Below, one piece after another: positions 14,262 to 54,456 of a stretch of 64,000 nucleotides of DNA. The position numbers were made by a program, and so were the translations under genes. This DNA is from Ophelia neglecta. Its lineage: Eukaryota. The first letter of the stretch is position 1; every line of letters begins with the position of its first letter. The notes under the pieces are model-generated. The model had not been told where the DNA came from and made no database searches. It saw nothing but the letters and a program-made list of their open reading frames with translations. Location of the stretch: the NCBI GenBank assembly GCA_965285935.1, contig OZ260663.1, forward strand, positions 75,888,001 through 75,952,000, in the 5' to 3' direction.

Positions 14262-14422
14262 AAAAAGGTATGGGTCCCACTGTATTGGACGGGCTACCGA
14301 ACGCCGCCTATTCACAGGCGCGATCCCACTACTGCTCGACACGGAGACTTTTGCCTGCTGCGTTTCCGCCCTGGGCCGGTACGTCTCTCCTTAGACAACC
14401 TGGTACCCCTGGACTCCTCCGA
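14262..14422 (-). pseudogene. 7SL (SRP) RNA copy lacking its 5' 142 nt
   Basis: Identical to 30807-30967 of the full 7SL gene and ends in a T5 terminator. The junction is at CCGA (14419-14422), beyond which the sequence resembles the upstream flank of the full gene. Confidence 0.9.
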
Positions 14423-15341
14423 CAACGCATCTTTAAGTGGTCTATTCTATACTGAGTTGGTCTACAACATATGTGGGATGATAACCTGTTCCTCGCCGAA
14501 CGAAAAGATAGGGTGTTTTGCGGCACAATTTTCAGATAAAACCTTATACTGCCCGAGTCTCAGCTTTTGCTTCAGTGATACATTGTCAAAAGTAATTGGT
14601 ATCAGTACACTTGTTTAATACAAATGCCGGTTCTTTTGTACTCTACAGGCTATCCATTTTCCATTGGTGGCCATTATGACATTTGTCTCAATTGCGTACA
14701 TTTCGACCGTTTCGGCCATTTGCTGCTTAACTGTAAAAATGTAATGTATACATAATATAATAATTTCACGGAAGCAAGCGTTTTTATTCTTCACAAATTA
14801 CGATAAAAGCGACCGGGTAACAGCGGGCTATGAAGAGTGCATCACGAAACTCGAACAATCCCATTGTCATATTAACAAAATTGGAAATAACATTTCTATT
14901 CAGCGAAATTCTTTGAAAAAGTTACTATCGGTGGGAACTTAGTACTACGCTCTGTGCACTGCTCCCATTTAATTTGCATTATATAGATTGTCCGGACATA
15001 CAGTAATGAAATAGCTTTATAAATGCACAGATTTACAATAGTGTGTTATTCCATTGCCATCAGTAATTTTGGTTTTCTGTTTCACCATGATTAAGCGCTT
15101 GTTCTGCATGTTTACTACTTCAACACAGCGACATGCTCACTTTCCATGCCCAACATACCTTACCCACCCTGCCCACCTATCCGAACTCATTTGAACATTC
15201 TTCAACATACCCCCCATTCACAGTAATTAAAACTATAGAGAAACCATCGAAATCACCAAGGGTTTTATTTAGATACAGATATAATTGTTACACAAACTAA
15301 TAGTGGTTTGTTTTCCTTTAAAGGTAAATGACACGATAGTC

Positions 15342-30804: not shown

Positions 30805-30811
30805 AAAAAAA
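30805..30811 (-). terminator. RNA polymerase III oligo-T terminator of 7SL
   Basis: T7 run immediately after ...GGGACCCATACC. Confidence 0.9.
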
Positions 30812-31106
30812 GGTATGGGTCCCACTGTATTGGACGGGCTACCGAACGCCGCCTATTCACAGGCGCGATCCCACTACTGCTCGACACGGAGACTTTTGCC
30901 TGCTGCGTTTCCGCCCTGGGCCGGTACGTCTCTCCTTAGACAACCTGGTACCCCTGGACTCCTCCGAAGGCACCATATTGATGCCGAGCTTAGCGCGGAC
31001 ACCCGATCGACATAGAACGACGAGCGACAGGAACCCCGCCCTCAAGCCGTCCACCACACCCGGCCTCCAAGTAGCTGGATTACAGGAGAGCGCCGCCACT
31101 CCCGGC
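30808..31106 (-). ncRNA. RN7SL: 7SL signal recognition particle RNA gene, full length (~300 nt)
   Basis: The minus strand begins GCCGGGAGTGGCGGCGCTCTCCTGTAATCCAGCTAC (Alu domain). It contains GATCGGGTGTCCGCGCTAAGCTCGGCATCAATATGGTG, the helix 6 GGAG tetraloop, helix 8 GCCCAGGGCGGAAACGCAGCAGGC and CAGTAGTGGGATCGCGCCTGTGAATAG, all closely matching metazoan 7SL. Confidence 0.98.
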
Positions 31107-31129
31107 CGACAACTCAAGATAAAGTGGTC

Positions 31130-31180
31130 TTAAATACACGAAGCAGGCCATGTAGGCAGGTTACCTGTCACTCGCAGTAC
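31130..31180 (-). promoter_or_regulatory. Upstream Pol III promoter elements of 7SL: TATA-like TATTTAA at about -30 and a PSE-like block at -44 to -74
   Basis: TATTTAA at 31136-31130. The block 31150-31180 matches 14471-14501, upstream of the second 7SL copy, at 22/31 nt. Confidence 0.55.
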
Positions 31181-33580: not shown

Positions 33581-36500
33581 CTATGTTATGTTGACGAAGA
33601 ACTTCGGCAGGTGTCGCCTTGTCACGGAAGCTGTAAGAAGAAGAAACATGTACGCTTGTGTGTACTATTCAGATAGATATGTTTCTAGAACGTACTTCTA
33701 GGCATTATTTCACGGTGGGGAGAATGACTACATGCTGTTCATTAATCATTCACAGTTAGTGTTACTTTGCGAGCCATTTCTTCACCAATTCAAGCGGACA
33801 CAAGTGCATATCACAGTTCTACTGTGAATGACATTAACCTCAAGCTTAATAATGGAATATGTACCTGCAACTCTGTGATAGCCGATAGTTTCTAAACCCT
33901 TAATGAAGCATAACAGTATATCTCGGAGAAAATCAAACTCCTGTCGTAATCGAGAAAACACTAGTTTAAGCATGGCTCCGCATCTCTTCCTAACATCACG
34001 ATGGTCCGTTTGAATTTCGTACACGTCTTGTTCAGTCAGCCCCAGAGCTAGGCCCAAGGACCTCCAGTTGACTAGCACCGATGAACACTGTTTTAGCTCC
34101 TCGAAGAGGGACATCAATCTATTGCCTTTTATTGCGAACAAAATATGAAAGACGATATTTCTTTTAAATTACGTTTGTAACGTTGCTATCGTGAATTCAT
34201 TTAGTGGAGAAATCAAGCAGATAACAATTGTTATAATTTGCTATTATTTCAAGTCTTGCCGATGCAGACGATAAGACTTGTCGATGGAGTTCAGACATTT
34301 AATAATTCATACCTTCGCCCTTGATGACGTAGGCACTGTATCTGTCTTGCACAAAAGAAGCCTCCCTGTGTAACCCACTCTCCTTCAGGGTCACAACTAG
34401 TTTTCTTACCTACATTGAAACGTAAAATTATTATCTTCTTTTATTTCATCGTGGGAAATGGTGAAGTATTTATGATCAAAATGATGCCAAATTTACGTGA
34501 ATGGTTATTGTTTTCTTACAAACTGCTATTGTCTGTTGTCTCGAAAATCGTGCTGAAAAAAATTCAAAGGCTTTTTATTTTCAAGTGGCTACTTACAAGC
34601 GTTCCCTCACTTTTCTTGGGGTTGAGATTACGCCAGCGCTTTAGTAACTTGAAAGACACCAGATCAATCGTATTAGAGCTGTTTACAATGTCGTTTGTAG
34701 TGCTGGCATTCAGAAGTTGTCTCCCGAGAGACATAACTTTTAATTCATCTTTTTCCATATCCCAAGACAATCGTTTGAGAAAGTCACCAGTTAGAAATCC
34801 TCCTGTTTTAAATGAAAACAATCTCGATATAAATTTGACAACTGTACCAAAATCCGACATAGGAGATAAAGATATTAGCTCTGTTGCTCAAAAATTAAGA
34901 TATTAATTTGTTACAAGCTCTATATGGCAGAGTATCGAGTTCATCCCTCTCATGGATAAGAATGTATTTTACAAAGCAAACATACCCTCAACGTCTGGCA
35001 GTCCCAGTTCTTCCATCACAGCGTTACGTTGAAGATGTCCGTCAGAAGGCCCCTGAATACAAAAGGGTACCTGCACTAGTTAATTCATTATTGTCATACA
35101 GAAACATGGAACAGACGACAAGAATGTACTGATTTCTCGAGCATTTTACTAATAAACTAGCAGCATAACATTGCTGACCGGCTCTTGTCCTTCTAGTACC
35201 AAGAAACAGTAGCAGCTGGTCCTGCAAATATTAACATGTCCATGTACTGTGTACAAGAGGCGTAAGTTAGGTGGTATTTGTTTAGATCTAAGAACGCTTG
35301 TCTCAAACAACGAAATGCCTGTAACTCTGAATATGATTTTAATAATTACGATCTTTACCAGTGTTTCCATATCCTAACGGTGAATTCGAACTCGTTTGCA
35401 AATTCACGACGAAGACAGGTGTCGGGCTGGTACTTGGAAATTTTCTTATCTTTGACGTATAATGTGACCTTGGAACTTCGGAGATCTACGGATGACCGAA
35501 TAAAATTGGTATTGTTTGGTAAGTACGAGGAAGAAGTGACCGTGAGGCTGGAACGGGATAGATAGTTTCTTCTTAGTATTTAATCTAACTCCTGGCATAC
35601 CTGACAGTTTACACCGCAAACCCAGTTTAACACTTCCAAAAGTGTTCTTTCCTGGTTTAGGGACAAACAGGCTGATAGGTCGTTTTGTGGGCTCGCTCGA
35701 GGTGACCTTGATGATGGGACTCACAGCTGCGGTGCGCATGGCATTCTGGGTTGGTATCAGTGTCCGAAGATCTGTCTCATTCATATCAAGGGGTTCAATC
35801 TGTGTACAAAAAAAAATTTTTACTTGTATAGAAAATCGTATATTTCTAATTGACTAAATTGTATATTGTGAAGGATGTTTCTTTTGAGCTTTTTCGACTA
35901 ATAATGAATTTTTACGTAGTCATGTTGAATTCAGAAACGATAAATACAATTCAAGAAAAGCAAGATTGTAGAAAATGATGAGCGTATTGCCAAGGAGCAA
36001 TTGTTAAACGGCCAGGGTTTAAAATATTATTCTAAAATAAAGCATCTACCCTTATTTTGACGGTAGCGGACGTATCAAAAGATCTCCGTGCGACTTGGAC
36101 ACGAATATTTGGTTCCATGGTTGAGTGAAACTCTGTTCCCACCTCTTCTACTTCTCTAGCGTCCTCAATATACCTGGCTTTTAGATCAAAGACCATCATT
36201 CTGAAAGGGTCATTGATAAGGACCTCCAAGAAGTCAAACTCTTGGTTGTCCACCGGCATGCGAACCATACGACATTCAGCAAATCTCCATTGCAGAAGGT
36301 CCACAGTGTAGAGAAACGACATGTGCTGGAGAACATCGTTATATACGCCTGTGTTTACAGGCATATACAAGTAGATAGGTTCCTGGAAATATATGAATTA
36401 TCAAACTACTCTTAATTTTTAAAAGGATTTGATGAATATGAGGAATTAACATTCATATCAAAATTTGATCCATATTCACATATATGGATAGAATATGGAC

Positions 36501-39323
36501 ATATATCCGTGCCCTCGTCAAATGTATTATAAATAGACGCATGTTATCTAAGGATTAAGAACCAACAATACATGTATACATAAGAAATTCGAACTTTCTT
36601 GAATTCAATTGTAATGTTTGAAATTCATATGAACTGGATTAAAGTAAATGAAAACGTTTATCATAATTATGTACGTATGTATACTATACTATACTATACT
36701 ATATTTATATGTACATGTACATGTAGACCTTCATGATATCACACTCTCGCCTTTTGAATAACCTTCAACAAAATTGGTATGACCCATTAGGGCCTATAGA
36801 AGAATTTTGGACACCACGGTTTCTCCTGTTTTTCCCAGGCAACTTAATCTTAAAAGCAACATATTTAAGTAATAAAACAGCCCACGTACCCCTAAGGTGT
36901 GTACTTGTCGGTTAGTGTTCTTCCAGACAAGCTGCATCGGTGACAACACAACGGTCTCGTCTGCATCGAACTCAGCTTGCGGCAGGGGTGGTAGTTTACT
37001 GATTACATCACGTGCAACGTTGTCCACCAATTGAAGGCCTCGCTTCACATCCTCCAGCAATGACGGTGACGCTCGAACAAGGCAAGCAATGACATCTTCT
37101 TTCTGAAATCTATAAACACAAGAGCTTGCTATTTATTAGCATGTTTCATATCGTATCAAACTAAAGCTTACAGTGGTTAAAAGGTCAGTCCCTAACACTC
37201 AGGCAGAACGGGTACTGCCGTCATCCATAAGTTTTACTTCTAATTATCAATGTACAGTAACTGTGGTAAACATATTTATGTGTCACTGTTCGGTTGCTAT
37301 TTTTTCAAACTGGTTTTAGTCATGTCATACTTGTAAATTGGCCAACTTCTGTGTTCCTGGAAAGCTCTTGGCGGCACAAACTCCTCTTGAATATTACTTT
37401 CCGCGCCCTAAATTTAAAACAAGATGGAAAATCATTTACATTTTGTATGAAATGGCCAACAACCGGAGAGGCTTAACGGGTGCTTTAACCATTTTCCCTA
37501 TCAATCGAAGAAATTCTCATGCCAATTAAATTACTCACCGGCCCACGAGCACTGCTTTCAGGTAGTGATAATGCCTGGCTACTGCTCTCGTCGATGGCAG
37601 ACTCCTGTTCAAAGCGATCATAAGAAGTCGCCGGTTCTGGAGATTGGTATGCCCTTCTCACTTCTTCTCCTCTTCTGTCATCGTGAAAGCTTCGTTGGCC
37701 CGATTTGATGGACTGCAAATCAAAATCCTTGGCCTGTCTTTTAGAAGGCCTGCTTATCATATTCGTTGTGACAGAATTCTGACTGCTGTCTAAATGCAGT
37801 GTGGACAGACTATTGGTGTCAATACTTGCCGCTTCTTTCTTCCTTTGTCTAGGTTGAGAAGATACGATTTCATTCCAAGTTTCGCGGTCTGTAAACCGTG
37901 TTTTCTTCTCTTCTGTCTCGCCTAGTATTCTTTTGTACCGGAACAAAGAGTCCTTGTCGGTGTCAGAGTTAACACTCGGGAGAGAATACCTACTTAGGTC
38001 TGGCGTTTTGACGCTTGGGTTGACTGGTTTGGGGCTGTAATATGCTCCTCTAATTTCCGGAAGTCTTTCCCTTTTTCCGACGGTTGCAGGCTGATGCGCT
38101 CTGGCCTGTTGGTAGGTTTTAGGATCAGGGTCATGCCCATAATCCTCTACCCGGGAAGTGGATTTTATCACTGTCTTTATATCAGGTCTCACTGTCTCGG
38201 GAGTATTCCAGTGCTCGTTGTACATATATTCCCGACGATCTGCCTCCCTTATAGGCAACGAAGGCCTCTTCCTTTTTGGTGTCTTTCGTTTCGCTTCGAA
38301 CTCTGTGTCATTATACTCATGAAAGTCTTCTTCCTTCATGTAAATTTCTCCACTAACTTTATACATGCCTTTGTCCTTCTGATAAGTTCGGTTTTGTTTA
38401 GTGGGTTCCGGGGATCTATCGCTTATACTTCTTTGGGGTATGTCATAATAGTACTCATGTCCATGTATTTCCTGCGTTTTCGCCCTCCTTTCCTCTGTGG
38501 GACTATGAGTAGTATCTTGTCCATTTCTTTTGTCCCATATAGATCCACCACCACGGATTACTGGATGATCCCTTGTATGATTGTATGGACGTTTACTTTT
38601 ACTTATACGTTCACTCTGTGAATAATCATATAGTCTTGGCGATACATGGTCAAACTTCTTAGCTTTAGCAACATGTCGGCGTAAAATCGGGTCGTTTTCA
38701 CCATAGACATTTGGTGAAAATCTAGATTTGTCGTCATGCTGTGTGATTTGTTTTGGTGATAACACGTGGTCATTTTCTTTCTTATGGCGATTAGTTTCAT
38801 TTCTAGTTGTAAACTCTTTGTTTCTCTTGCGGGGTAGTGATTGTTCTGTAGCGGGAGAGAAGTTAGTCTTGTTCCGTATTGCCACTTTCCTTTCATGGTT
38901 ATTCTTTGGGCTCGGCTTAAGAACCTTATTAATAACCTGAGCCGTCTTTTCGGGATATTCTGGCTTCAGAGGATAATTTTTCTTACTGTTCTGCTTCGAG
39001 GACACTGGTTTTAAAGCGTTTCTTTTGACCACAGTATCCTGAGAATTTTGTCCTGACTTATTGTGTTCTACGGCTTTCTTCACTAAAACACTGTTGTTAG
39101 GCTGGTTATGTGATTTTTCCTCTGTGACTTTAAATGCTGCCAATGCCGCCTTCCTTCGTTGTTCATCCATTACTCTCTGGTTATTAATTTTCGTGCGTAC
39201 TTTCCTCTGGTTTTCTGCTTCCTCTGCCTTTCTTTCAGCCTCTTTCTGTTGCAGCAGGGCTTTGTATTGCCTCCATGACATACGCTGTGCCTGCTCGCCT
39301 GTATCCATAGTTCCACTGGGCAT
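33581..39323 (-). CDS. Protein with a ~595-aa basic low-complexity N-terminus, ZU5-ZU5-like domains and two tandem death domains (DTHD1/PIDD/ankyrin-type module)
   Basis: The large exon 39323-37539 splices in phase 0 to ~37102-36908 (ETVVLSPMQL). Then follow ~36383-36050 (HSTMEPNIRVQV), ~35800-35601 (AVSPIIKVTSSEPTKRPISLFVPKP, ZU5-like), ~35485-35359, ~35221-35179, ~35070-34986, ~34880-34597 plus ~34409-34313 (death domain 1: LTGDFLKRLS...LLKRWRN...LVVTLKESG), ~34125-33864 (death domain 2: NWRSLGLALGLTEQDVYEIQ...AMLK...GLETIG) and ~33630-33581 (stop TAG). Confidence 0.8.
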
Positions 39324-41205
39324 TTTGAATATATGAATCCTAAAAACTTCAGGAAAAGGAAAGCCTTACTCACTTAGTACCGCCGCATACCCAATATGTC
39401 ATGCTTCAAACAGTACTTCGATGATGTCCAAAAACATATCAAACTGACATTTTATCATTTAAGTCAAAGGCAAGATTTACCCAAACTTGTAGACTGTGAT
39501 TTTTATCACCGGACTAATTGATTTTGCCGTATACTCGGCGCTTTGCCTGGCGTTGAGGCGATGTGGACGGAACACATTTGGGTGTTTACTTCTTTGTGTT
39601 AGCGCATAGTGACCATAGCACATATCATGCATAACCAAACATTTTGAACGGTAGCACTGTTTAAAAAGCAAACACGGTCTTAACATCAAATGTGCGTCCA
39701 GTTCACTAACAGAATATCATGTTTGTCTCACCTCAAACCTTACCAACCGCATGATCGAGGCGACTTCTGATAGTAGACAAGTACATACAACCAACACTTG
39801 TCCATATAGTAAGGGTCAGAATTCGAAGAAAGAATTATTGCATTCCATTTATAGAGCTTTGTAAATTGTATGGGTATAAGTTGTTCTCTTCCGTATAGCG
39901 AACGTTATAGACATGTTGCTGAACTCATATGAGGATTTTAAAACGAGTAGATATATACATATAGCTAGAGTGCTTCAAATAGCATCTACTGGGGGGGGGT
40001 CATGTTCGTGATTTGGACTTCTATTTAATACTTGTCCCGTGGGTCATTATGTATTCATCCTATTATATATTTCCATTTTACTAAAATTTTAATCGTGAAC
40101 TTATATAAATTTGAAAATGAACCACTTCCAATGTCCCCTGCACACAGATCCTGGTCTTCTACCCTGATAACACCAGACAATGTGGGCAGGGTAGGCCCAC
40201 TTCCAATAGCACAGAAAGTCGAGAGATCATACATTTAAGTATACACTTTCTTGATAATATCACGAATCCGTAAAACACCAACTGCCAATGGACAAGAGGT
40301 TCAATGGAATGGAAAATATGCTTTACAAAACGTCATGCCTAAGTCTTGTTTTAAAAGTTTGCTTAAAGGAAAAAGACAATGTCAACTTCTTATCTAAGTT
40401 TGCAACAGATGTATTGATATATACATACATGTATTATAACTAACTGGCCTATATTAGGAACTATAGCAGTAAAATCATCATCAAGAAATGGTAAGCATAG
40501 CAACCACTTGATCATCACGTGAGAATTGTTACCCCTGATGAGTATCTAGGAAAAAATTCCTTTCTTTATACAACTATATTTGTGCAGAATGTTTTTGTTT
40601 TTTTTATGAGCTGCATGTGAACCTAACTGTCAGTTAATTTAATGTTTTAAATATCTCTAACGGTGTTTACCAGACAGTTCTAGACGTGCACTCATTCCCT
40701 AGTTTATTTCGACAATATGAGAATAATTATACTCTATGTTTAGCAAAGAATTTCATCGTGACCTTATCGCTGACATTGTATTTTATTCTGAAGGGCATAA
40801 ATAAACCAAGATTTTAAACCAGGCCTCATTATTTATTTTATTTTAATAACATATCTCAGTCATTTGGCTTACTTTACCAACAACAAATAACTAAAACTTT
40901 TATTTCAGTTTTGCACAAATATTTCCAATTTATTGATCAGCGGAAGACAACTTAATAATATAGATTGACGGAAAAAAATAGTTAAGCAAGTGTCAACACG
41001 ACCATCATTTAGAGTTCCTGTTGCACTGTTGCCTATAGACAATTGCTTATCTATTTTGTAACGTTAATCTACTCAATGATTACACTAAGATAAATTTGAA
41101 TGTGATAACACACGAAAGTTAAAATAAAATATATGTTATTTATTATTTTTGTCAGCTCAGAAGACAATTTTGTTCAGCCTGCATCAGTGGATAACTAGGC
41201 TCTCC

Positions 41206-42724
41206 TCACGGAGTTGGTCCGTCTGACCCGGACTCTGAAAATATTCGAGAAGAGAACATATAGGCTCTTGACAATTATCTTAGATAAATTGGACAAAAAT
41301 GGAAGTATGAGACGGTGAAGGGTTATAGACAATATTAATACTATGTTTGTACTTTCATTGATGGATACGTTGTTAAGATAAGATTCTGTTTTAATTGAGC
41401 CTATGAACTATACCTGACGAAACGGATTCAACAGAATCCGATGACGGAGCGGATGTTCCACTTACACCTGAAAAAAAAACTCCTTTTAGTTTTGTATTGT
41501 ATAAGTTCTTCATTTTTCTTAAACTTATTTTAATTAGACAAAAAGGCACACAATAGTCACATTTTAAGACAAGTGGTGTACAAAGTGACCAAGTGACCAA
41601 CTGCATGGTTAAGTGGCTGCGGCGGAGCGAGGTCAAGCCAAGAAAAAAATAACAATATGCTGGGCTTGGCAGCATCAGTTATATTTATTGCATTGTGCCT
41701 ACATATAGTAAAAAACTGGCCAGAGGTGGCCATGGTCACAGAATATGAAGGACGGAACAAAGTTAGACCTATCGCTAAACTGGTGCATGATGATCGATCC
41801 AAAGTGAAAATATAGGTGAACTTTCTCAGACAATTTGAGAAACAAATGAGCACAATAGCAAAAAGCACTTATTTGATTTTGTAAAGAAATCATTTTCGAG
41901 GTTATTATGCAGCTTAAATACACATAATCAGCGAGAGCAATTTATCCAACGATAGATCCAGTATTGAATATTTTACACCCACCGGAGGAATCTGAATCAA
42001 CAGACGGCGCAGAGTCCGAAGCAGAGGAAATACCATCACCTGAAAGAAAATTATATATAATTATATCACCTTATATCAAATTGTATCATAGTGTATTTTG
42101 AACGATATCCAGTTGACAATTTAACCAGGTTTAAATCTAATTTGATGTTCACCTTGAATGAAACAAAACGTGTCAAAAATGCGTGACAATATACCAGTAA
42201 GACAATAACGTTCTACCAGGTACTATACGTCTGGTATATTGTACACGCACATTGCTATCAAGATCTCAAGCAAAGTAAGTAAGATTACCATAAATGATAT
42301 CAGTACAGTTTAACCTTATAGTTAATACAAGTAAAAATTGACAAACAACTAGTTATTTATTACTTATTTATTACTAATTACTTTTTTTACTATTAACATT
42401 CACTAAATATTTGTAAAAAGCAATTTAAGGTGCTTTGTGGAAACATTCTACTTGAAATGAATATAAAGTACATGTGACCAGCCACATGTGCGCGAACTGT
42501 TTAGATGTTGTCGAATATTTACCATTGGCAAAGTCGTTCTTTTAGTGTATTTCAAGTGAATTAATAGCGTACATATATTAAGCTGACTGGCGAACGGTTA
42601 GGTGAGCGTATTTTTTGCTTTTCTTACCTTGACGGTCCTTTTCTTTTCCTTTCCCTTCCTTCTTTGACACCACAACATTGATTAGCAAGATAGCCAACAG
42701 GCTCAAAGCCAGTAGAGTGCGCAT
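41206..42724 (-). CDS. Four-exon 78-aa secreted Ser/Asp/Gly-rich orphan protein
   Basis: Exons 42724-42628 (97 nt), 42039-41983 (57 nt), 41467-41414 (54 nt) and 41234-41206 (29 nt) total 237 nt. All introns are GT-AG phase 1 with TTTCAG acceptors. Kozak context is gcaaccATG and AATAAA lies at 41144-41139. Translation: MRTLLALSLLAILLINVVVSKKEGKGKEKDRQGDGISSASDSAPSVDSDSSGVSGTSAPSSDSVESVSSESGSDGPTP. Confidence 0.85.
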
Positions 42725-42756
42725 GGTTGCAGTACGTGGTAGGACAACAGAAAAAC

Positions 42757-42807
42757 TGCGACGACAGAAAGAAAACAGTCACTAGTTTTATCATACTCCC
42801 CGCCCCC
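42757..42807 (-). promoter_or_regulatory. Candidate core promoter of the small secreted gene
   Basis: GC box GGGGGCGGGG (42807-42798), TATA-like GATAAAA (42792-42786) and Inr-like GCAGTT around 42757. Confidence 0.45.
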
Positions 42808-45800
42808 TGATACTCAATATGTTATTTGCCTTCGACTTGTGGACGCCTAATTGATTAATTTAATTTAACGTCATCGATATCGCCGCAACCTTCTGTCATC
42901 GTCAACATTGCTGGCAGAATAACAGTGATGTACACTCATACAGAGTATGACTACATTCAACGAAGGAATAAATCAATAAAATATTAAGTATTATTTAGTC
43001 TTTACCTTCGACGTGAAATGTAGTCTTATTCTTGTTATACAAATCAAAATGTTTAAACCCGTGCGTCAACAATCCAGACGGAAGACAAAAAAATGGGTCA
43101 TTTTTGTAAAATGCCCAATTAATCTGATAAGGAAATTCTCATACCCTCTCTCTTTCTTCGTTATAAAATCACCTTCTATCTTACCTGTAGTTCTTGGTCT
43201 CAAATTTCCCTGGTCTCTGACAAGACAAGCAATTAATCATATCTCAATTTGCGCCTTTTATATACTAAGAATTCCAGAGAACAAAACCGATGAGTACCAC
43301 TTATAGGACGAATAATCCTAAAACTATATTATCAATCACAATTGAAAGTACTTCAAGTCAATAGCCTTCCCATACAGCTGTTTGTGGCTTGAAAATCGAA
43401 GACATCTTCCTTGAAACGAAGAGACATCCATGCATAAGGACGCGGTTGTTGACCTATATGATTGCAGCATGTGTTAGTAGAATCACAGGGGATAATTATT
43501 GGATGGACGTGTGGATCGAATGTTGGACTAATTGAAAGACAGCCATCCGAAGTTGATGGCTTAATAAAGAAAACTCTATGTATATGCCGAGCTAAAATCT
43601 CTCACATGCAAAAAGCTGGGTGGTACGATAGACTCTGATGTTTCGACCTATTTGTGTAACATGCATGATAGACATTAAAGTTAATTTTCTTTCTGCAATA
43701 CATCTGTGACTCGTATACATTTTAGCTGCAATGATGCTTCAGTGATATGATTGGCATTGCTCTCAGAGGCCAATTATTTTGAACTGAATAATATAACCAA
43801 ACAAATATATCAGTCTCCAGACCCACCTGAAAATTTGCAATCTTCCTGACCTTCGAGTTGTTTTCGGGAGAAAATATGCAACCTGATAAGTGTAATATTT
43901 GCGATAAGTTGAGTTTATAGAATATGTTGGTGTTGAAAAATCTGTCGTACCAGGTTTCTTTTCAGAATATCTCCCTACTTTGTTATTAGTCATTAGATTT
44001 TTTCAAACATTCCTAACTACTAAGAAATAATGTTTCTTTTATTGTGCACATTTTCAAATCAGCAAACGTCATTGTTATGTTTGGGATATTACACCGATGA
44101 TTCTTTCATTCAAGAAATTTTCTCATTTTACTTTTTACCCGGGTCCCGAACTACAATAAAAGTGGAACAAGATAACAATATCGTTCAAAATATTAAATTG
44201 TCGATGAATCAATTACCCTCTGTTTTTCGAAAACGCATCTATTACTGTTTGACTCTTAACAGTGCATACTGTCCTTATTTTCCGACCCGGTAAGACCAAA
44301 TAAAATCAGTATGTCTCAAATTAAAGAACTTAAAATACATAGTCATAAATTCCTAATCAAAGAGGAAGATGGTGGAAAAAATAACTGAAATGCATGTTTA
44401 TGAATATCATGATGGGGCTAGAAACATGCTTCTAAATATGACAGCTAAATGATTGACCACTGCCAGATGATTGGCCGCTGCAGTTTTAGAAGAAGGAAAT
44501 ATCTAATAACAACGGCAAAAAGAAAATGAGGCAGTTTAATGCCGTTGATGCAATATCTTTAAGCGTATATTTGAGAAATTTGATGGGCAAATTGGTGTTT
44601 GTGCTTGTAGTCTACTATGCCTACGGACATGCTATAAATATAACATGTATTTGACGAATTTATCAAATGTGAATAATGATTTTTTTTTAAACCAACAGAA
44701 ATATGTGTTTATTTCAAGTGCTTTTAAGGTCAGGTGCCAAAGAAAATCAATGCTTCAAGTATTATTCACCTTAGTGGAGATCTGTCAGAAATGTTATGTT
44801 TTGAAGTGCTATTTTTCGATTGGCAACAAGCCCAAATTCGCTCAAATATCTATTAAAAGACTGTCACGTGCACTTTTAAAGTAAACTTTTGCGACTGCAT
44901 TTTTTATTGCGAAGAAACAGGTTATCAATTCAACCTTAATGTAGCAATTTACAACAGTCACAGCCGTAAAATAGAATAATATAAGTTTTTTTTAGCGTAA
45001 CGGATCTACAAATGGTGGGGAAAAAATTATCACTTTATCTGTGTAAACAAATAACAATAATAAATTTTCAGACTATGCATGATACGCAATAATATATCTC
45101 AAACTGTCTTAATCTCAAAAAAAAAAGATAATCAAGTTCAAAGGGGGGGGGGGGGGGGAATTCCAAATAACCAATTGCAATTGAGACTTCAAAACACAAA
45201 AAGCATATATATTACAAATATTGGTGGAGGTAGGGATGTGGAGGAGGGTACCACTTCCCAATGAACAAACATATATATCGGGCAACTATTGGGTATATAC
45301 CTTACCACTGGCCCAATACAAGGCTAAGTATCGGACCATATTCAGCATGCTGCAAGCTAAATGAACTCAACTGCGGCGCTATCAGTAACCACAAGTAGTC
45401 AGTAGTGGCCAATTTCACACATTCTGTTACCATTTCATGTACTTAACCAGTATTGGCCCAATTCTAACAAACATCATTATAAATGTCGAATTATTATTTC
45501 TTTTTGTGACTTATTTGGCCTTGACTTTTTATTTCAAGCAATGTGAAAAAATTCCTTAGAGACAGTTTATCGGGTATTCAATATTTTAGGTTTAATTTAT
45601 TGCATTTCAGTGCGAAGCTGCTGTTTTGCGGGATTGTTTTTTGCGCACTTATTTTTATTGAAAAACTAAATCAATTAGATCTAAAAGAAATAGTGGTGGA
45701 AATGATGGAGAAAAAATATCGACATACAAAATTTAATGACTTATATCTATTTATTTTTTCTGAAAGAATATCTTTTTAAAAAGAAGTTCGAGTTCCTGTG

Positions 45801-47266
45801 CATATATGTACTACGAGGCCTTTGGTCAGGAAGTAGTAAGCGGCGACTTGAATGCAGATTAGGGTACTCCTGAACAACTTGGAAAAAGTGTAAACCGTTA
45901 TTGTTTAAGAAGACCACACATTAACCACCTTTCTACATACAGATGGAGTTAAGTGGATAGAAATAACAATAAATTTTGTATTTGCTGAACTAGTATCTAT
46001 TTCAGTGGACTCAGAGGGCGATCATCAGCCCGAATAGACAAACTTATGCAGGCAATCACAAACAGGCTTGAGTAGATCTGTAGCAGAGCGCGTTCCGGGT
46101 TCTTACGTCATATTTACAAAACCTTATTGGGTCAGGGAATTTAATGAAATGCACGCTGAACAGAAACGAAAAAGCTCAATTTTGATTCAAGATGGTTCTC
46201 GTACAGAATTACAATATAATCCTTATGCGGCTTATAAAAGGTCCAAGACCAAATCTTGGATTCTCCAGTGCTTAAAATAAAAGCTCTAAATGATTTAACA
46301 TTGAATAAAGTAGAGAACTATGGTGACTGAGCGTCGGGCGCTAATGACTATGTCGGGCTGCTAATAAAACACAACGCCCTCAAAAATCAATGTTAAACGT
46401 GAAATATTTATTTTTCTTCAGTATATTGACCTTTGGTAGCCCTTTCAAGATAGCCTGTTATTCAAAGGGACCTAGCATATTTACATATAAATATTAGCAT
46501 ATAAAACAGATGTACATGTATATATAGTAACAATGATTCTAGATACATGCGCTGTATATACACATAGGCTAGCACCAGGTTTATTGCTATCATTACAAGT
46601 GAATTCAAATAGAAATACAACTTTCTGACATTATCTCTTACATAACACTAAGATTTAGATACTCAAATTTATATTTTTGTTTTATATTATTTATTGATAT
46701 ATACTATGTACCACTGCTCTCATTTAGTTGAGATAACTAATAAAGTACCTACAAATGTATACACACTTTATATATTTTGGCTGGTCTGTAACATGTAACA
46801 TGTTGTGGCAAGCATGTGGCGCTCATTAAAATAGGTTTATACGGGTTTTGCTGGGTATATGATCTAAGTTGATCTGATGTCATTTGGTTAAATCTACGTG
46901 GATCATAATATATGTATATAATTTTTGTAGGAATAGTATTTAGTATTGCCATTATACATGTTATATCTAACATACCTAAATTCAATATAAAACTACGGTT
47001 CTGCCATGATCATCTACAAATCTCATGTCATTGTGATAATAAAACCATTTCATTCAAATTGCGTTGACAAAGTATGAAATGGAACATTTTAAATATAAAT
47101 ATAAATAGTATTGTGGTTACAGTATTTTACATTGCAGGACACATGAAAGTTATGGCCAGTTATTTTAGTTCACGTTTGAAAAACCTAGATATCTTAATTC
47201 TAAATATATTATTTCTTTTTTAGGACTGGGAAATGGCTTATATGTTTCATATAAAAAAACGAAATG

Positions 47267-50200
47267 TCATGGCATCACAAACCCAGTACAGTTCCACAGA
47301 GGTATTTGTGTACAGTATGGCGGGTGGCACCGGAAGTCATGTAACGCACCCGTAGCCTGCATAGCAAAGCCAATCGCTATACCTCCTCCAAACATGGCCG
47401 GCACAGCAATGAACGAAAACCAGTACAGCAGACCCATGCCAGACAAACCATGGCCGCTGAATCGGGAAAGAACGAATAATGCTTTGACAATGCGCTTTTT
47501 ATCAAAATATATATACGAGTTATTTACTGTTCATAAACTTGACCAGAAATACTATCATTTATTTGTGTCTTGTTGTTAAAAATAATACTCCTATGTAAAC
47601 AGCTGACTGATGTTAAAAATCTGGCAAATTTCTTCAACTTTCTCTTTTAATAGTATAAGAGGTGAAACCCACATTTTGAAAGGATCAACTTATGATTTTA
47701 CAGCTCACTTTTCTAACCATAATTCAACTTTAACATTGCCCCCCCCCCCCCCGCTGCCCCTAAACTCAAGAAAAATAAGGTTTTCACGTTTCATCTGAAG
47801 TAGGTATGTTCCTCTGTGGATAGGATGTAAATACCTGGTACATCCGGCTGCGAGTCTACTCCCAATGAGTAGCAATATTCCACCAAAAATGGCGGTTATT
47901 ATATTAGGACCCTGAGCAGTTGCAATGGACCGCGAGGATAATGCTGAAAAGGCCCCTCCGCCTACTGCAGCAACCACGTAGAAAACCTGAAGCAAAAGCA
48001 TAGAAATGTTGCTGCGTTGCTGAAAATATTTTTCAGTTTCAAGATATCAATACATGTACATCTAAAGCAGTATTAATAGAACCAAAGATAACTTCAATGA
48101 ATATTGTTGCGTTTTTACCAAGATGTCAATACATGTAAATTACTGTATACCTACCTGCCACCAATTTCCTAAGCCACACCTAGCACCTGCGAAATAAGGG
48201 AACAATTTCTGCAGGCGTTTACCAACAAACAGCTGTGCTATTATGGTGACGTAGGCACTGCTGCCGCCCAGCGTGTCGCCTACCGCAAACACTATAAAAA
48301 CCTGTAAGACGCCTATCACAGCTCCTGGGAATAGAAACGTAATGTAGGGTTTAGCGTTAATGTATATTTTCAATATTATACGCAATATGTTTATGAAACA
48401 TTACGATGGGAGCACTGCTACGCCAATATAATATTTAAAATTAATGATTATGTACAGTATAATTAAAAAGTAAATGTATGCAATATTCGACAAGGCAGAA
48501 TTTTCTAGGCCTACTGCAATTATTTAAGTTCACACACTTGCCTGCGACACCTGGCGGCCAAGCCTTCTGTGTAAATATGTTAGAAGACCAGGGTGTGGCT
48601 ATATAATTACGGTCCTGTAATTGTATCATCTCATACTAAATGTGTGGGTTTCATATCATATAATGAACAACATGGTACGTCCTGTGTTGCTTCTGGTATA
48701 AAATTGTATTTCAGAGACATAAAACATTTTAATCAGAATTCCTTTATACGAATTTTGAAAGACGAACTTGCCCAACAATCCAAATCGTTCTGCCAAGGGA
48801 TAAAAAATTCCATGAGAAACACAACCACGCCCAGAAGTATAGCCATAGGGAGGGCCACAGCCACATACGGCCAGTTGAGTTTTTGGTGAATCCTACGAGT
48901 AAATAAAAAGAAATATTAGGCAACACCGAATACATGCCATTTTTCATTATTTAGATTGCGGATTTTCCTGGGAAAAGAGACGTGTGGGTGAAAAAACGCG
49001 ACTTTAATTCCAGCCATTAAATCATGATTTTGGTAGGTGCTGAAGGGTGCTTAAGGATTTTACATTATTTATAGTTGGAGGGGGGGGAGGGGGGGGGTGG
49101 TTGATACGCAAAATGAAACCGTGTAAAACTGAATATCAGTGTCCAAAGTTCCCCCCCCCCCACGAGAATTGGTCAGAAAGTGTTCGTCCCCCCCCCCTTC
49201 CATAGACCATCTTTGACATCATTTCTGACTTTTGACACACCCTGTTCATCTTTGATATAATGTCCGGCTATTGACATCTAAAATCCGCATTTAAGTATTC
49301 CATGTCTGTCTTTTCATGAAGTGTCCTCCTTTTGACAGTAACTGTCCCTTTTGTTTCAATCCCCTGTCTGTTATTCGAGTTATTCCCTAGTTTGCCTTCG
49401 ACCATTATTTCCCTGTCTCGATTTTGTTTTTCGTGCAACCTGTTTGGCATTGATAAGCGTAACTTACGTTAATGTTTTAAAGGAGTTCTTTGGTCTAGTA
49501 ATTCTCACGATAAATGGAGCTATCATTCCGTATATCAAGGCACCTATTAAAACTCCCACAAATGTGAATACTAGAAGAAGAAAAAAAAAGTAGATGATCA
49601 AAACTTTTTTTCAGAATTTTCAATTATTTCCGGTATAATTCTGCAAACTATATTAGCTTCTATAAAAATAAGATACGTACTTGCGTTTTTAGCCCATGTG
49701 CCAACTTGTGGTAGAACCATACCCGGACACTGCAAGTAGGCGAAGTTTAACAATCACCGATATACGATGAAATTCAGCCACATGAAACTGAACATAGACC
49801 TAAAAGTTATTATATTACATCGAAAATTATATATTGACTATTGCATTCAAATCTTTTTATATAACAAGTGATTTGATGAAAATGGTTGCTTGTAGGCCTT
49901 ATGGCTTATTCAAGGAATTGCAATTAGATTAGACATTCAGTAAAAGCTACAAATCAAATCAGCACTCCCAGACCGAGTATAGACATCGAACAACAAAAAC
50001 GTTTTGTTATATCAGAATTTGATAGCTTATATTAAAATAACAGGTAAGGTACTCACAGGTTTTCGAAAGTGTGACATTAACAACTGAAACCTTTTATTTT
50101 ATTGATTTCATGAATAAACTACTGTTTCCTGTTAATTAATTCTATTCCCCTTTATAAGCTAATGCGAATTGACTGGAAAAGCAACCAATTAAAACACTTC

Positions 50201-53200
50201 TGGCTTTAACGGACCAATGAAAAGGCTTACTGCTCCGGACAGAACCATGCCAATTCCTAGAATAAAAGGTCCTAGGGCACTGGTCAGAAGACCTTTGTCG
50301 GCAAAGCAAGATCCGAATGCCTTAAACGCTCCCTGGATGTGGTCTTTGGCCTTCGGGATAACGGAAAGGATGGATAGACAAAGCTGACCTGAAAGGAAAC
50401 CACATTGACATGAGCAGTCCAACATCCATCCCGTTGTATACTAGGCCTAACTACAGTAATAGTCTTTTTCTTGTTATTCATAATTTCTTAAACTATATTG
50501 TTCATTGAAAAGTAGTGATCTCCCATTTATCTCGTAATAAATGTAATTGTTAAAGATCTCTAATAATGAGTAAAGTAGCACAGCTGTGATATATGATAAG
50601 GTTTGGTTAGTAGTTGTTTTAGCAGAGAGGCTAGAAGCGACCCTTCTGTACGAAACCAGTCGCAAGTCGAATCATTCCTCCACAGCCAATAAGAGTGTTC
50701 ATTGGCAGACGTGAATGATATTGAAAAGATGATTTATTATTTTCATTATAAAGTGAGCCGTATGCGAGTTTTATTTTCTCTGGGTAGTCTAGCATTAGGT
50801 AAAACCACCTACTTACGCACTGATCTTCAGCCCGTCGGACAAGAAGCGACGGGGGGGGGGGGTGAAGATGGGGGACGGTGAGGGAGAGGGGGAAGGAGGG
50901 GGGAGGGTAGGTATTGCCTCACCCATTAACAGAAGCATAACAATTTTCCTGCATGTCTATTGGCTAACAACTGCTTCGAATAAGCGGTTATATTACTAAA
51001 ATAAATCTTAGTATTTTACACTGATTTCATGTCAGGATATTTACCAGATGCAACAGCAGCCAGGAACATCTTCAACATGACCCATCGTTTCATCACCATC
51101 TGTAGTCTTATAGAGGCGGCTTCGAATACTAGATTAATAAAAAATACATATAAGTGTGATCAAAGTAGGTTTTATGCATTCAATTGAACACGAACATCTT
51201 GGTTATATATTACAAACATGTAGCGGAACTATGACGCAACAGGATTAAAATAGCGATAAATATATGACAAGATTATATTAGTAAATGACCATGGCTATGA
51301 CATGTTATGATACATGGCTTGTGTATACTGGGAAATAAATATATGGTTTTTGAGACAGCAGTTAGCTCTCTTAATGTTTCTCTTAATGTTTCCTGGCAAA
51401 CTGCACTATCCCCAACGCGAGTATTATGAGAACTGGGACATATCCTCTGTCCTAGGCCCTTGTGATATTTCAGAAGGGCTGCATCTGTTGAGAGTCCTAC
51501 GGTATACAGATTGGAGTGGATCAAACAAGTCATTAATCGCAATATGATATCGATACGATTGTCCACCACCTTCTCGAGCAACTAAAAACGTAGGGCAGGT
51601 AAAACACTGGTCTACAGTTCTTAAAAGTGCACGTGCAATTGCTCGATTGAAACATGCTGGAAAACAAACTGACATCAGGGATTCGTATACACTTTCTCTG
51701 TGATAATAGGGTTAAGTTCATCCTCACATGCCTTCACCAGCCCGGAAGGAATAGGGACAGCCTCACATGATTTTCAAGGCGACTTAAGAATAAGCTCTCT
51801 GATTTCAGACAGAGACGCAAGCTGAAAAGTTGTGAGCGCTGACTCGTCAAAGACAGGATCCCTGGACATAATGGAATTATCCTGGCACTTACAGTTCTCT
51901 TACAGATTACCTCTTATATAGTTATGGTCTTTTTCAAACAACCTCAGGGTACACCTGAAACTGCTCGAGGTACGTGCATTATTCTTCAAAGAATGTTGCT
52001 ATATTTAGTCCAATTGCCATTGAAGACAGTGGTCGATAAGCCGCGCACAAATGTACACGACCCCAATCCAGAATAACTTCATATTGTATGTGTTCAAAAT
52101 TTGTAACAGTCTGCTCAGCCGTAGAATTAACCACTTTAATGCTAATTTCCATTTTAGATACCACAGGAAACCCTCCCCAAATTGTCCATATTGGCGAGGG
52201 GCATTTTCCCATAACCGGAAGGTAAGAGTTCACTAATAACCACTTTATCGATGTCTAAACCATGCCAGGTTTCTGTAATTGTCAGTATGTTTATGTCATT
52301 GGTCACCACATACTCTGAAAGGGAGACCCGGTCTTGTTTTGACAGACCGAGCACTGATACTGTAAGCATAAATGACTTGAATCGGGCTCCCTATAGTTGC
52401 TTAATTTCCTTCTTTTTCAACTACAGAGAAACCTGACAATAAGGGACAGCCAAGGGACTGGGAAATCTGTCTTCTTTTCTCAGTTGTCCTTATTTCACAG
52501 GTTACTTGTAAAGTATCACAACTGTACTAAAAACGATGTCCTTAATAGTCATTGTGTCCATAATTGTCAGGTGCCCTTTGGGCTGGTTTTACTGTAAATG
52601 GGTTCAACCGTAATAACTGTGTTTACATTCAGTCCAGGTTGACCTGAGGAGTTGATTCCAGAGTCCTCGTGCATGCTTGACACTTCTTAATCATAGACCT
52701 ACGGATTGGATATCAATCAAGAGCAACAGTTCAGGATCCAAGCAAATATTAATATGACCAGTCTTCCTACGTGACATGAATAATCTGCTCGGAATGTGTT
52801 TTACCTTCTTCTTGGTCTGAAGCTGACCTTTTCAGGAGATGTACAATTAGAAATCTTCATAATTTATACCAATCGTGACAGTAAAATACCCCCAAAGCGT
52901 GAACAGGCTAGCTACAGCGATACTTAGTTTAGTCCTATATTCACTTGGCTATTCCATGATCTCATTTTTGGTTTAATGTTGTATTGAGGGAACCGAGATT
53001 AGTTTAATATGAGACCTCTGGGGAGAAAATACCTGATTCAAAAGGCACGGTACACAAAATCAGTGTTTGCTTGTATCTGTTTACGAGTTCAGGTGTAGAC
53101 GGTGTCCCCCGGTGGTATCACAGGGGCTTGTGTCAAAGCCTTATAACGTATAGGTATGTTGACACAAGCCCCTGTGGGTAGTATACACTTATAGCCGATA

Positions 53201-53797
53201 TAAAGTGAATCCGGCCTTTAAAAAAAACCTCTATATCAAGACAACGTGAAATTTAAATACCTATCTGTCAACCTAGTAGTCTCTATTCAGATTGAAAATC
53301 AGGATAATAAAGCCAGTTGGAAATTGCCAGCACACGAAAACTTACAGTAAACGGTTAGCCTATATGTGTAGGCGTTTTTCCATAGGAAACCTATCTCTGT
53401 TCTCCCTCAGTAATAAATTTAATTTCCCGACAAAAATATATCGTGATCTGAGAAATTTTCATTTTCGAGAAACTTCTTTACCGTGTTTTAGAAGGATGTG
53501 GCATATGAACTTACCCCTGCCTTTCTCCAAACACCAACCGAATATAATCCCAGCCACCACACACAGGAATAGGTCAAGGAACACCCGTCCTGGGCGACTT
53601 TCAGGCGCACAGCATTTCAAACAACATCCCCCGTCTCTTGCGATGTCGTCTCCTTTTTCTGTTTCCTCAACCACGATTCGTGTTGTTGAGTTATAGGTCG
53701 GGATTGTTCCCGTGCTAGCCAATGGTACGTTTTTGTCCTCATTTTTATCATCATTTTCCATTTTAGCATCTGCCACTGCGGATATTTTTGTTGTCAT
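47267..53797 (-). CDS. YeeE/YedE-family (TsuA-like) sulfur-compound transporter, 10 coding exons
   Basis: Exons: 53797-53515 (GIIFGWCLEKGR), 51128-51045 (MLKMFLAAVASG), 50388-50231 (GIGMVLSGA), 49729-49681 (CPGMVLPQVG), 49570-49468, 48892-48772, 48614-48542 (AWPPGVAG), 48324-48155 (TLGGSSAY), 47986-47835 (GSRLAAGCT) and 47456-47267 (SGHGLSG). The family motifs GxGMxLxGxCPG and GxRxAxGCTSGHG are present and the frame is continuous. Confidence 0.92.
51290..52390 (-). mobile_element. Degenerate CR1/L2-clade LINE ORF2 (endonuclease and start of RT) in YeeE intron 1
   Basis: Peptides INILTITETW, AAYRP, SLSEIRELILKSP*KSCEAVPIP, KNCRPVFYLPY, LEKVV and FDPLQSVY, interrupted by stops and frameshifts. 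Confidence 0.85.
53119..53176. mobile_element. 58-bp mini inverted-repeat element with 18-bp perfect terminal inverted repeats
   Basis: CACAGGGGCTTGTGTCAA-(22 nt)-TTGACACAAGCCCCTGTG, flanked by ggtat and ggtag. Confidence 0.65.
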
Positions 53798-54456
53798 CAG
53801 AATGGCCGTTGCTCAAATGTCGTGGCAGACGATTAGCCTCATCCGGAAAACGCCACCTGGATTAAGGAAAGGAACTAAAATTCTAAAAACGTTATGCTTG
53901 GTGTCCTTGCCACTGTCTCTCTCAGGTGAAACTAGGCTGTCTACTGGGCTCACTGAACAATATAAAACATGACGTTTACACGCAGGAGTCAACCTTGTTA
54001 GTCTCTGTGTTTGCAATATAACACAGATGATTGGTTTGCTGTAGGTATTAAGATCTTATAAAAGATCATGCCATTGCTTGACAATGTACGCACTCTATTT
54101 TGTAAATCAAAGGCTAACCTTGAAGGGTTCTGATAGAAAAAGCCTGTAAGTATTAATCCGCCAGACGCATCACAATATCCACTGTCGAGTTAATATAAAG
54201 ATGGAGCTTAATGCATATCTGTTTGGCGTGCTTTCTCTGTACTTCAATCGATCCGTGATCCCGATCGCTTCTGCTCCGGAACAAAACAAAAGTATTTATG
54301 ATAGATCCTGTAACACTAACTATATAGAACAGAAATTAATGATGTTTACGCATGCACTAACCAGGGCACGAAACAACATTGTTTTGGCAATCACGCTTCG
54401 ATTTATTTAAAGTCACCCGTTTAGACTAGGGTACAATGAGCAGCAGTGATAACAAG

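Follow-up and report, generated by a model that had tools for sequence, protein, structure and literature searches.

Lineage-restricted, low-complexity secreted proteins have been described as typical of the secretomes of skeleton-forming invertebrates, and the RLCD proteins among them are orphan, secreted and disordered, combining modular short repeats with acidic motifs credited with calcium binding (PMC4897951). In annelids, the sabellariid proteins Pc-3A/B and Sa-3A/B/C are described as Ser-rich, carrying a signal peptide and acidic once phosphorylated, with FAM20C proposed as the kinase; Pc-3 is given as 72.9 mol% Ser and Sa-3 as 216-405 aa (PMC12621633). The vertebrate SCPP proteins are presented as small, secreted and acidic, with S-x-E motifs, small exons and no folded domain, and their genes, which originated from sparc-L and are adjacent to it, have coding introns mostly in phase 0 (PMC9122587). 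The micro-exon genes (MEG) of Schistosoma, as characterized in PMC10526429, combine a signal peptide with internal exons of 3n length (range 6-81) that can be skipped without loss of frame, typically comprise 10-20 exons, mostly of 15 bases, and encode a signal peptide followed by a hydrophobic-aromatic motif.

We analyzed a window of 64,000 nucleotides from Ophelia neglecta (contig OZ260663.1, positions 75,888,001 to 75,952,000), to which all window positions below refer. The stretch between positions 41206 and 42724 is likely an expressed orphan gene, with a 78-codon frame in four coding exons on the minus strand. Sequence comparisons support its description as a small lineage-restricted orphan of an ordinary kind, and the predicted peptide belongs with the lineage-restricted secreted low-complexity proteins, a class defined by composition and tissue and not by descent. 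Many such small secreted orphans exist in invertebrate genomes, and scallop MSP-1 may be an analogue. Like the RLCD proteins, the peptide is orphan, predicted to be secreted and disordered, acidic and repetitive, but it is far smaller than most of them and its repeats are whole exons. It differs from the sabellariid proteins in having 78 residues (a third of the Sa-3 length), 39% Ser in its tail and no Tyr; set against the roughly 73 mol% Ser in polyserine runs and more than 200 residues that mark Pc-3 and Sa-3, the whole protein contains 20 Ser in 78 residues, and no Pc-3/Sa-3-named protein appeared among the protein-collection matches to its first coding exon. With SCPP proteins it shares small exons, the lack of a folded domain, a likely non-coding first exon, a signal peptide (by rule), an acidic region and S-x-E motifs, the last without enrichment. 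Unlike SCPP genes, however, it is an invertebrate, single-copy gene with phase-1 introns (3/3), no SPARC-like neighbor was found among the window genes scanned (15 exon frames), and it can be considered an SCPP analogue at most. The gene was also examined as a schistosome-type micro-exon gene, a candidate that was rejected: its two 3n internal exons, of 57 and 54 bases, permit frame-keeping skips behind a predicted signal peptide, but they are the only internal exons, and there is no aromatic residue to match the MEG motif.

The original prediction had proposed four exons separated by phase-1 GT-AG introns, opening with a Kozak-type ATG and closing with a stop codon and an AATAAA signal. All these elements are present, with splice sites ranking beyond chance, and the four-exon gene model was confirmed; we consider the gene very probably real. 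The coding sequence spans 237 nt (78 codons plus TGA) on the minus strand, interrupted by three phase-1 GT-AG introns (588, 515 and 179 bases). The first coding exon (42755-42628) opens with 31 nt of predicted UTR, followed by 97 nt of coding sequence (42724-42628) that starts at the ATG at 42724, in a Kozak-type context with A at -3, and would encode a signal peptide (residues 1-20) and a charged head (residues 21-32) before ending at a phase-1 donor. The second (42039-41983, 57 nt) and third (41467-41414, 54 nt) coding exons are both symmetric (phase 1-1), the former being Ser/Asp-rich and the latter Ser-rich and carrying the S-x-E sites. The last coding exon (41234-41206, 29 nt to the TGA) has the least secure junction. 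Downstream of it lies the poly(A) signal AATAAA (41144-41139), with a T- and GT-rich stretch behind, which is weak evidence alone against an AATAAA background of 0.98 per kb. GC content is 0.45, 0.53, 0.50 and 0.62 in the four exons, compared to 0.30, 0.36 and 0.31 in the introns.

Splice sites were ranked with generic matrices across the 8-kb intergenic stretch 39300-47260, which yielded 402 acceptors and 475 donors. The acceptors of coding exons 2 and 3 ranked second and third of 402, and the donors of coding exons 1 and 2 third and fifth of 475, with the last junction being weaker (donor 41413, rank 32/475; acceptor 41234, rank 26/402). Only 2 of the 3,487 YAG sites in the window, the last exon included, are followed by eight phase-1 codons all within the set S/G/D/E/P/T/A, a set picked after seeing that exon. 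Alternative last acceptors at 41178 or 40787, or the omission of the last splice, would give products of 70-76 residues without changing the reading, and skipping coding exon 2, 3 or both preserves the frame, so that the full and skipped forms have 78, 60, 59 or 41 residues. Within the 8-kb stretch, no candidates for symmetric phase-1 exons emerged other than coding exons 2 and 3, and no further Ser-rich symmetric exon was found in 464 kb. A scan for signal-peptide exons over both strands of the same 464 kb returned seven matches, the first coding exon among them, and at least four of the other six fall within recognizable genes (CLCA, permease, Ig-like and another secreted-protein gene). Repeats in 40600-43900 amount to short chance pairs. 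The possibility that the peptide gene is part of the upstream sulphur-transport gene was rejected, the latter having its own stop at about 47267.

Three DNA-like contig sets (three runs from one sample and one study, none recorded as RNA) cover the locus without a break, and it is therefore not an assembly artefact, with the proviso that one of the three sets may be the assembly's own source. The sets differ at 14 places, none of them at a splice site, the start, the stop or the poly(A) signal. The one difference that falls within the 237 coding bases (1.4 expected) is residue-changing, a Gly75-to-Val allele that contig set X3 carries at position 41219, within the last coding exon. This difference and the lack of relatives in the collections searched speak for a silent relic, or for transcription of a frame that has no selected function. 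Against that reading, the locus combines an intact TATA box, leader exon, Kozak ATG, top-ranking splice sites, open frame and poly(A) signal, and in 200 local shuffles of the 8-kb stretch no copy yielded two symmetric phase-1 exons, under thresholds fixed after the exons had been seen; we regard a relic as very unlikely.

Transcription would start farther upstream than first proposed. The original prediction had named a GC-box/TATA-like promoter, the placement of which is probably mistaken. From the TATA-like word at 42795 to the initiator-like A at 42757 the distance is 38 nt, compared to a usual spacing of 30. The favored arrangement combines a TATA box at 43264-43254 on the minus strand, which from its sequence is likely to be the true promoter, with an initiator-like YYANWY element 28-34 bases behind it (+1 at 43234) and a donor at 43184, 80 nt behind the TATA box, that is the top-ranked of the 475. 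Of the 912 TATAWAWR sites in 464 kb, only 6 are followed by a MAG|GTRAG donor at a distance of 40-200 nt. At the other end, acceptor 42755, the fifth best of 402, lies 31 nt ahead of the ATG. The top donor, the TATA box and this acceptor therefore make it likely that a 50-nt non-coding first exon without ATG (43234-43185, delimited by the best donor and the TATA spacing) precedes the coding exons, in which case transcription would run from the TATA box through this leader and the gene would probably comprise five exons. It follows that the GC box at 42806-42798 (minus strand) is probably intronic, within the first intron (43184-42756), or else belongs to a second promoter.

Downstream on the same strand, the window contains a single-copy death-domain gene (33600-39750, minus) with a 594-codon, basic and hydrophilic first coding exon and a C-terminal death domain; its globular-looking middle exons gave no Pfam, PDB or Atlas match among the exons tested. 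The original prediction had named splicing of the peptide exons into this gene as UTR as a finding that would overturn it. Two acceptors of the downstream gene lie at 39346-39339 (minus): the first (39346, AAG) is in frame and the second (39339, TAG), 7 nt further, is out of frame. A coding variant can thus be envisaged in which the first three coding exons form the 5' end of the death-domain gene through a 41413-to-39346 splice, producing an N-anchored cytosolic protein like Unc5CL, which retains a transmembrane helix and ZU5-UPA-Death domains without an ectodomain, as described in PMC10084454. The in-frame acceptor leads into the long basic exon with a score of 3.0, compared to 2.4 for 41234, and the 594-residue first part of the downstream protein lacks a hydrophobic segment. 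Unc5CL has a type III orientation. However, the in-frame site is the poor AAG, and an in-frame fit would arise by chance in one case in three. The death-domain gene also has a Met of its own in good context at 39323, preceded by donors of its own at 39743 (rank 10 of 475) and 39731 (rank 4) within a stretch richer in CpG. Moreover, no ZU5 or UPA domain was detected in single-exon searches of the downstream exons tested, and the last exon of the peptide gene continues the tail composition, stops and is followed by a poly(A) signal. A fusion of this kind appears highly unlikely, and we retain the four-coding-exon peptide gene.

The predicted mature chain comprises 58 residues (5.6 kDa, pI 4.3), of which 88% are disorder-promoting; it contains no aromatic residue, Cys, Met, His or Asn, and only two Thr. 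Its block design, with a basic head and an acidic tail, is far from random: all six basic residues lie within the first 11 of the 58 residues (P about 1e-5), and Ser is absent from the first 16 (P about 5e-4). The 46-residue tail contains 18 Ser (39%), eight Asp/Glu and no basic residue, with no polyserine run longer than two. The Ser-rich acidic tail initially proposed was thus recovered, whereas the head, which had been called Lys-rich, is of mixed charge (six basic and three acidic residues, net +3). This layout could also be read as that of a precursor from which a cut behind Arg31 would separate a basic head, acting as a small hormone-like or antimicrobial peptide, from an acidic spacer, as its signal peptide, tiny size, Lys-Lys at the mature start and Arg-Gln at 31-32 would allow. 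Convertases prefer a basic residue at P4, P6 or P8. The basic residues here lie instead at P3, P5 and P7, with Asp at P2, and the spliced form has no Gly-Lys-Arg amidation site, no Cys and no hydrophobic face, with a head of only +3; the chances of such a precursor are slim, and it fits less well than the reading developed below, as does the silent relic.

The N-terminus supports the signal-peptide-like start followed by a basic-then-acidic body that had been predicted: residues 3-20 form an uncharged run of 18 that ends in a V(-3)/S(-1) site. Cleavage according to the (-3,-1) rule is well established for signal peptides. The product is probably secreted, and it would enter the secretory pathway with cleavage after Ser20. 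The charge difference across the run is 0, versus -1 and -2 in two neighboring signal-peptide genes, and this value, together with the 18-residue run and the two Lys directly after it, leaves room for an uncleaved anchor, that is, a membrane microprotein with its N-terminus outside, a Lys-rich head that stops transfer and a tail serving as a cytosolic kinase-docking region. The run length falls between those reported for cleaved signals (7-15) and anchors (19-27) (PMC2139883), no Gly or Pro precedes the cleavage site, and the run had the most favorable insertion energy among the starts compared, as a rough estimate with rough weighting. Conversely, the charge difference is not positive, Arg2 favors translocation of the C-terminus, Ser7 and Asn16 break the run and a valid (-3,-1) site is present, making an anchored microprotein clearly unlikely compared to a secreted peptide.

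We propose, with a probability of about 0.4, that the gene encodes a secreted, disordered 58-residue peptide whose tail is phosphorylated by FAM20C and which forms part of an extracellular material. The targets of FAM20C include S-x-E/pS and polyserine stretches, and the kinase has been proposed to act on worm cement proteins (PMC12621633). On the Ophelia peptide, it would phosphorylate Ser63 and Ser68 in the S-x-E context, thereby priming Ser61 and Ser66, with further phospho-sites possible, since the kinase also acts on polyserine stretches. Phosphorylation would take the tail from a net charge of -8 to one of about -16 or lower, and in this form it could associate with calcium or with basic partners, through ion bridging or coacervation, in a material such as tube, cement, cuticle or mucus. 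Several observations count against this reading. Strict rules give four phospho-sites for the 18 Ser, the absence of Tyr from the mature part implies no DOPA cross-linking, and the gene was found as a single copy in our searches. Matrix proteins often occur in families.

The motifs named in the original prediction (S-x-E, repeated SDS and acidic Ser-Gly) are all present, but enrichment over composition failed for S-x-E and Ser-Gly. Compared to 20,000 shuffles of the tail, S-x-E occurs twice (0.77 in shuffles, P 0.14), acidic-Ser-Gly twice (1.2, P 0.34), SDS three times (0.9, P 0.046) and S-x-S-x-E twice (0.28, P 0.018), the latter being one of ten patterns tried and hence weak. FAM20C-type sites amount to two direct (P 0.14) and two primed (P 0.064), and neither S-x-S (P 0.50) nor S-x-[ED] (P 0.36) was enriched over tail shuffles. 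The named motifs do not go beyond tail composition, and the case for functional motifs is hence weak. A caddisfly-like (SX)nE periodicity (PMC13267644) was considered for the tail and rejected, S-x-S being without enrichment.

Ser-Gly motifs raise a different reading of the tail, as the core of a mini chondroitin or heparan proteoglycan or of a mucin-type glycopeptide belonging to mucus or to the lining of the gut. The chondroitin proteoglycan cores of C. elegans are likewise secreted with Ser-Gly near acidic residues, which is given as a general attachment rule (PMC8418075), and the three Ser-Gly of the tail (Ser51, Ser54 and Ser71) include two with an acidic residue directly before. Ser or Thr adjoins Pro in both duplicated exons, and the genome encodes a FAM20B-like xylosylkinase at one locus. 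Nonetheless, Ser-Gly is not enriched (3 vs 2.3 in shuffles, P 0.43), none of the three sites matches the stringent chondroitin motif of nematodes (E/D-G/A-S-G), the Gly after Ser51 stems from the G|GT of a phase-1 junction and would be favored by the splice consensus anyway, and the mature part contains only two Thr. A glycosylated core is, on balance, rather unlikely, and the tail is better read as a candidate FAM20C substrate.

The tail may have grown through the duplication of a symmetric phase-1 exon. The DNA alignment of coding exons 2 and 3 scores 42, against 22.9 +/- 6.5 in codon shuffles, a value reached by 37 of 5,000; at the protein level the likeness is not significant (1,050 of 5,000 shuffles). 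Both exons contain SAPS and SV[DE]S, and TCN accounts for 17 of the 18 Ser codons of the tail. The DNA likeness, the common words and the TCN codons point to tail growth by exon duplication, and coding exons 2 and 3 are likely tandem duplicates, which would illustrate the exon-by-exon growth of a low-complexity tail.

No homolog had been recognized when the gene was predicted, and none was found here in the genome, two protein collections or metagenome contigs. The search with exon 1 for paralogs and orthologs that had been suggested, run as first-exon protein against the own genome (one candidate) and tblastn over 464 kb, recovered the gene itself and nothing else, as did a DNA search of the genome (one match) and a blastn search of the same 464 kb. 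Three pattern searches of the genome were equally negative: the first returned the gene alone, the second three matches (two self and one antisense to an unrelated long frame; two in the control) and the third three matches (one self and two in purine repeats; four in the control). A pattern built from the words common to exons 2 and 3 hit only those two exons in 762 Mb (control 0). In a set of 5.8 billion proteins, neither the one candidate of 36-116 aa nor any of the 32 of 85-2000 aa was a relative, and no relative was accepted among 1.84 billion representative proteins, where the one match, a 235-aa repeat protein without signal peptide (E 5.6e-4), was rejected. None of 597 pattern matches in metagenome contigs was confirmed, a second metagenome search gave 0, Pfam contained no match for the peptide gene, and the ESM Atlas returned no usable match, a result that indicates neither absence nor novelty. 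Queries against the protein sets were limited to the first coding exon or the open frame containing it and are weak for tail-only relatives, and the genome searches represent lower bounds. With such queries, complemented by short patterns, the absence of relatives is therefore only moderately shown.

The intron behind the first coding exon harbors a further frame. If that intron is kept, read-through (42724-42578, minus) yields 48 codons with a mature part of net +8, which may be due to chance, and AATAAA occurs in the intron at 42372 and 42361. Among 44 AG|GTAAG read-through sites in 464 kb, this is the only one with at least three Lys/Arg in codons 3-7, at least 16 codons and no Asp/Glu, although these criteria were set post hoc, the donor consensus dictates the first Lys and AATAAA is common in such introns. 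One could imagine that a single gene produces a coacervating pair, with the spliced acidic phosphopeptide as one partner and, as the other, an intron-retained 28-residue polycation (net +8) that would share the signal peptide and head and be polyadenylated at 42372/42361, within an invertebrate SCPP analogue that arose from duplicated phase-1 exons and is served by an expanded FAM20C set; we deem such a pair extremely unlikely. If expressed as predicted, the spliced peptide alone would represent a small secreted orphan gene of the kind missed by automated annotation, and a 58-residue polyampholyte that can be synthesized whole as a model for phosphoserine mineral binding or coacervation. By itself, the peptide gene does not open a long-standing question.

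To our knowledge, FAM20C genes occur in nearly all animals. In the Ophelia genome, 28 exon matches to Pfam Fam20C, obtained from 37 candidates, resolve into ten loci, of which seven are FAM20C-like, one FAM20B-like and two distant. A DRH-type, intact-looking catalytic loop is present in all seven FAM20C-like loci, five of which lie within 130 kb on contig C8 (34429000-34557100). A tree of eight loci and seven reference proteins, the two distant loci being left out, grouped three FAM20C-like loci (bootstrap 100) near Capitella and arthropod proteins, and three others in a divergent group (100) joined by the seventh (83). The three near-canonical loci appear to be recent duplicates and the remaining four are divergent, and in three of these the DRHHYE loop is altered (to DRHDYY in two and DRHHFY in one); a stray exon fragment with the catalytic loop was also observed on the plus strand of contig C8 at 34458687. 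For comparison, five FAM20C candidates, three with full kinase features, are reported from the transcriptome of Sabellaria alveolata (PMC12621633). No description of a FAM20C expansion in annelids, or of an annelid peptide of this kind, was found in the open-licence literature. The FAM20C-like expansion offers a suggestive context for a secreted phosphopeptide role rather than a link to the peptide gene, and the kinase cluster may be a better lead than the peptide gene itself.

Besides the death-domain gene, the 15 exon frames scanned in the window identified CLCA, SLC23-type permease, sulphur-transport and ABC-2 genes as neighbors. The sulphur-transport gene (47267-53812, minus) is intron-rich and matches Pfam Sulf_transp (YeeE/YedE-type), a family best known from bacteria. 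Two copies of one sequence of about 150 bases or more, with an identical translated stretch, lie at 14205-14618 and 30807-31133 on the plus strand and probably belong to a dispersed repeat. Another small secreted-protein gene, located about 189 kb before the window on the minus strand, combines a signal peptide, a short basic stretch, a phase-1 intron and an acidic exon; it is unrelated in sequence and, with an RR-containing basic end, looks like a peptide precursor. A signal-peptide gene with Ig-like exons was observed on the plus strand from L009:1858 onward. Elsewhere in the genome, two matches to the annelid erythrocruorin linker family accord with its annelid-like character, and 25 exon matches from 27 candidates define about 13 tyrosinase-like loci on contigs C1, C2, C5, C7, C8, C9 and C77, four of them clustered on C1 near 34.3 Mb, which have no bearing on the peptide gene.
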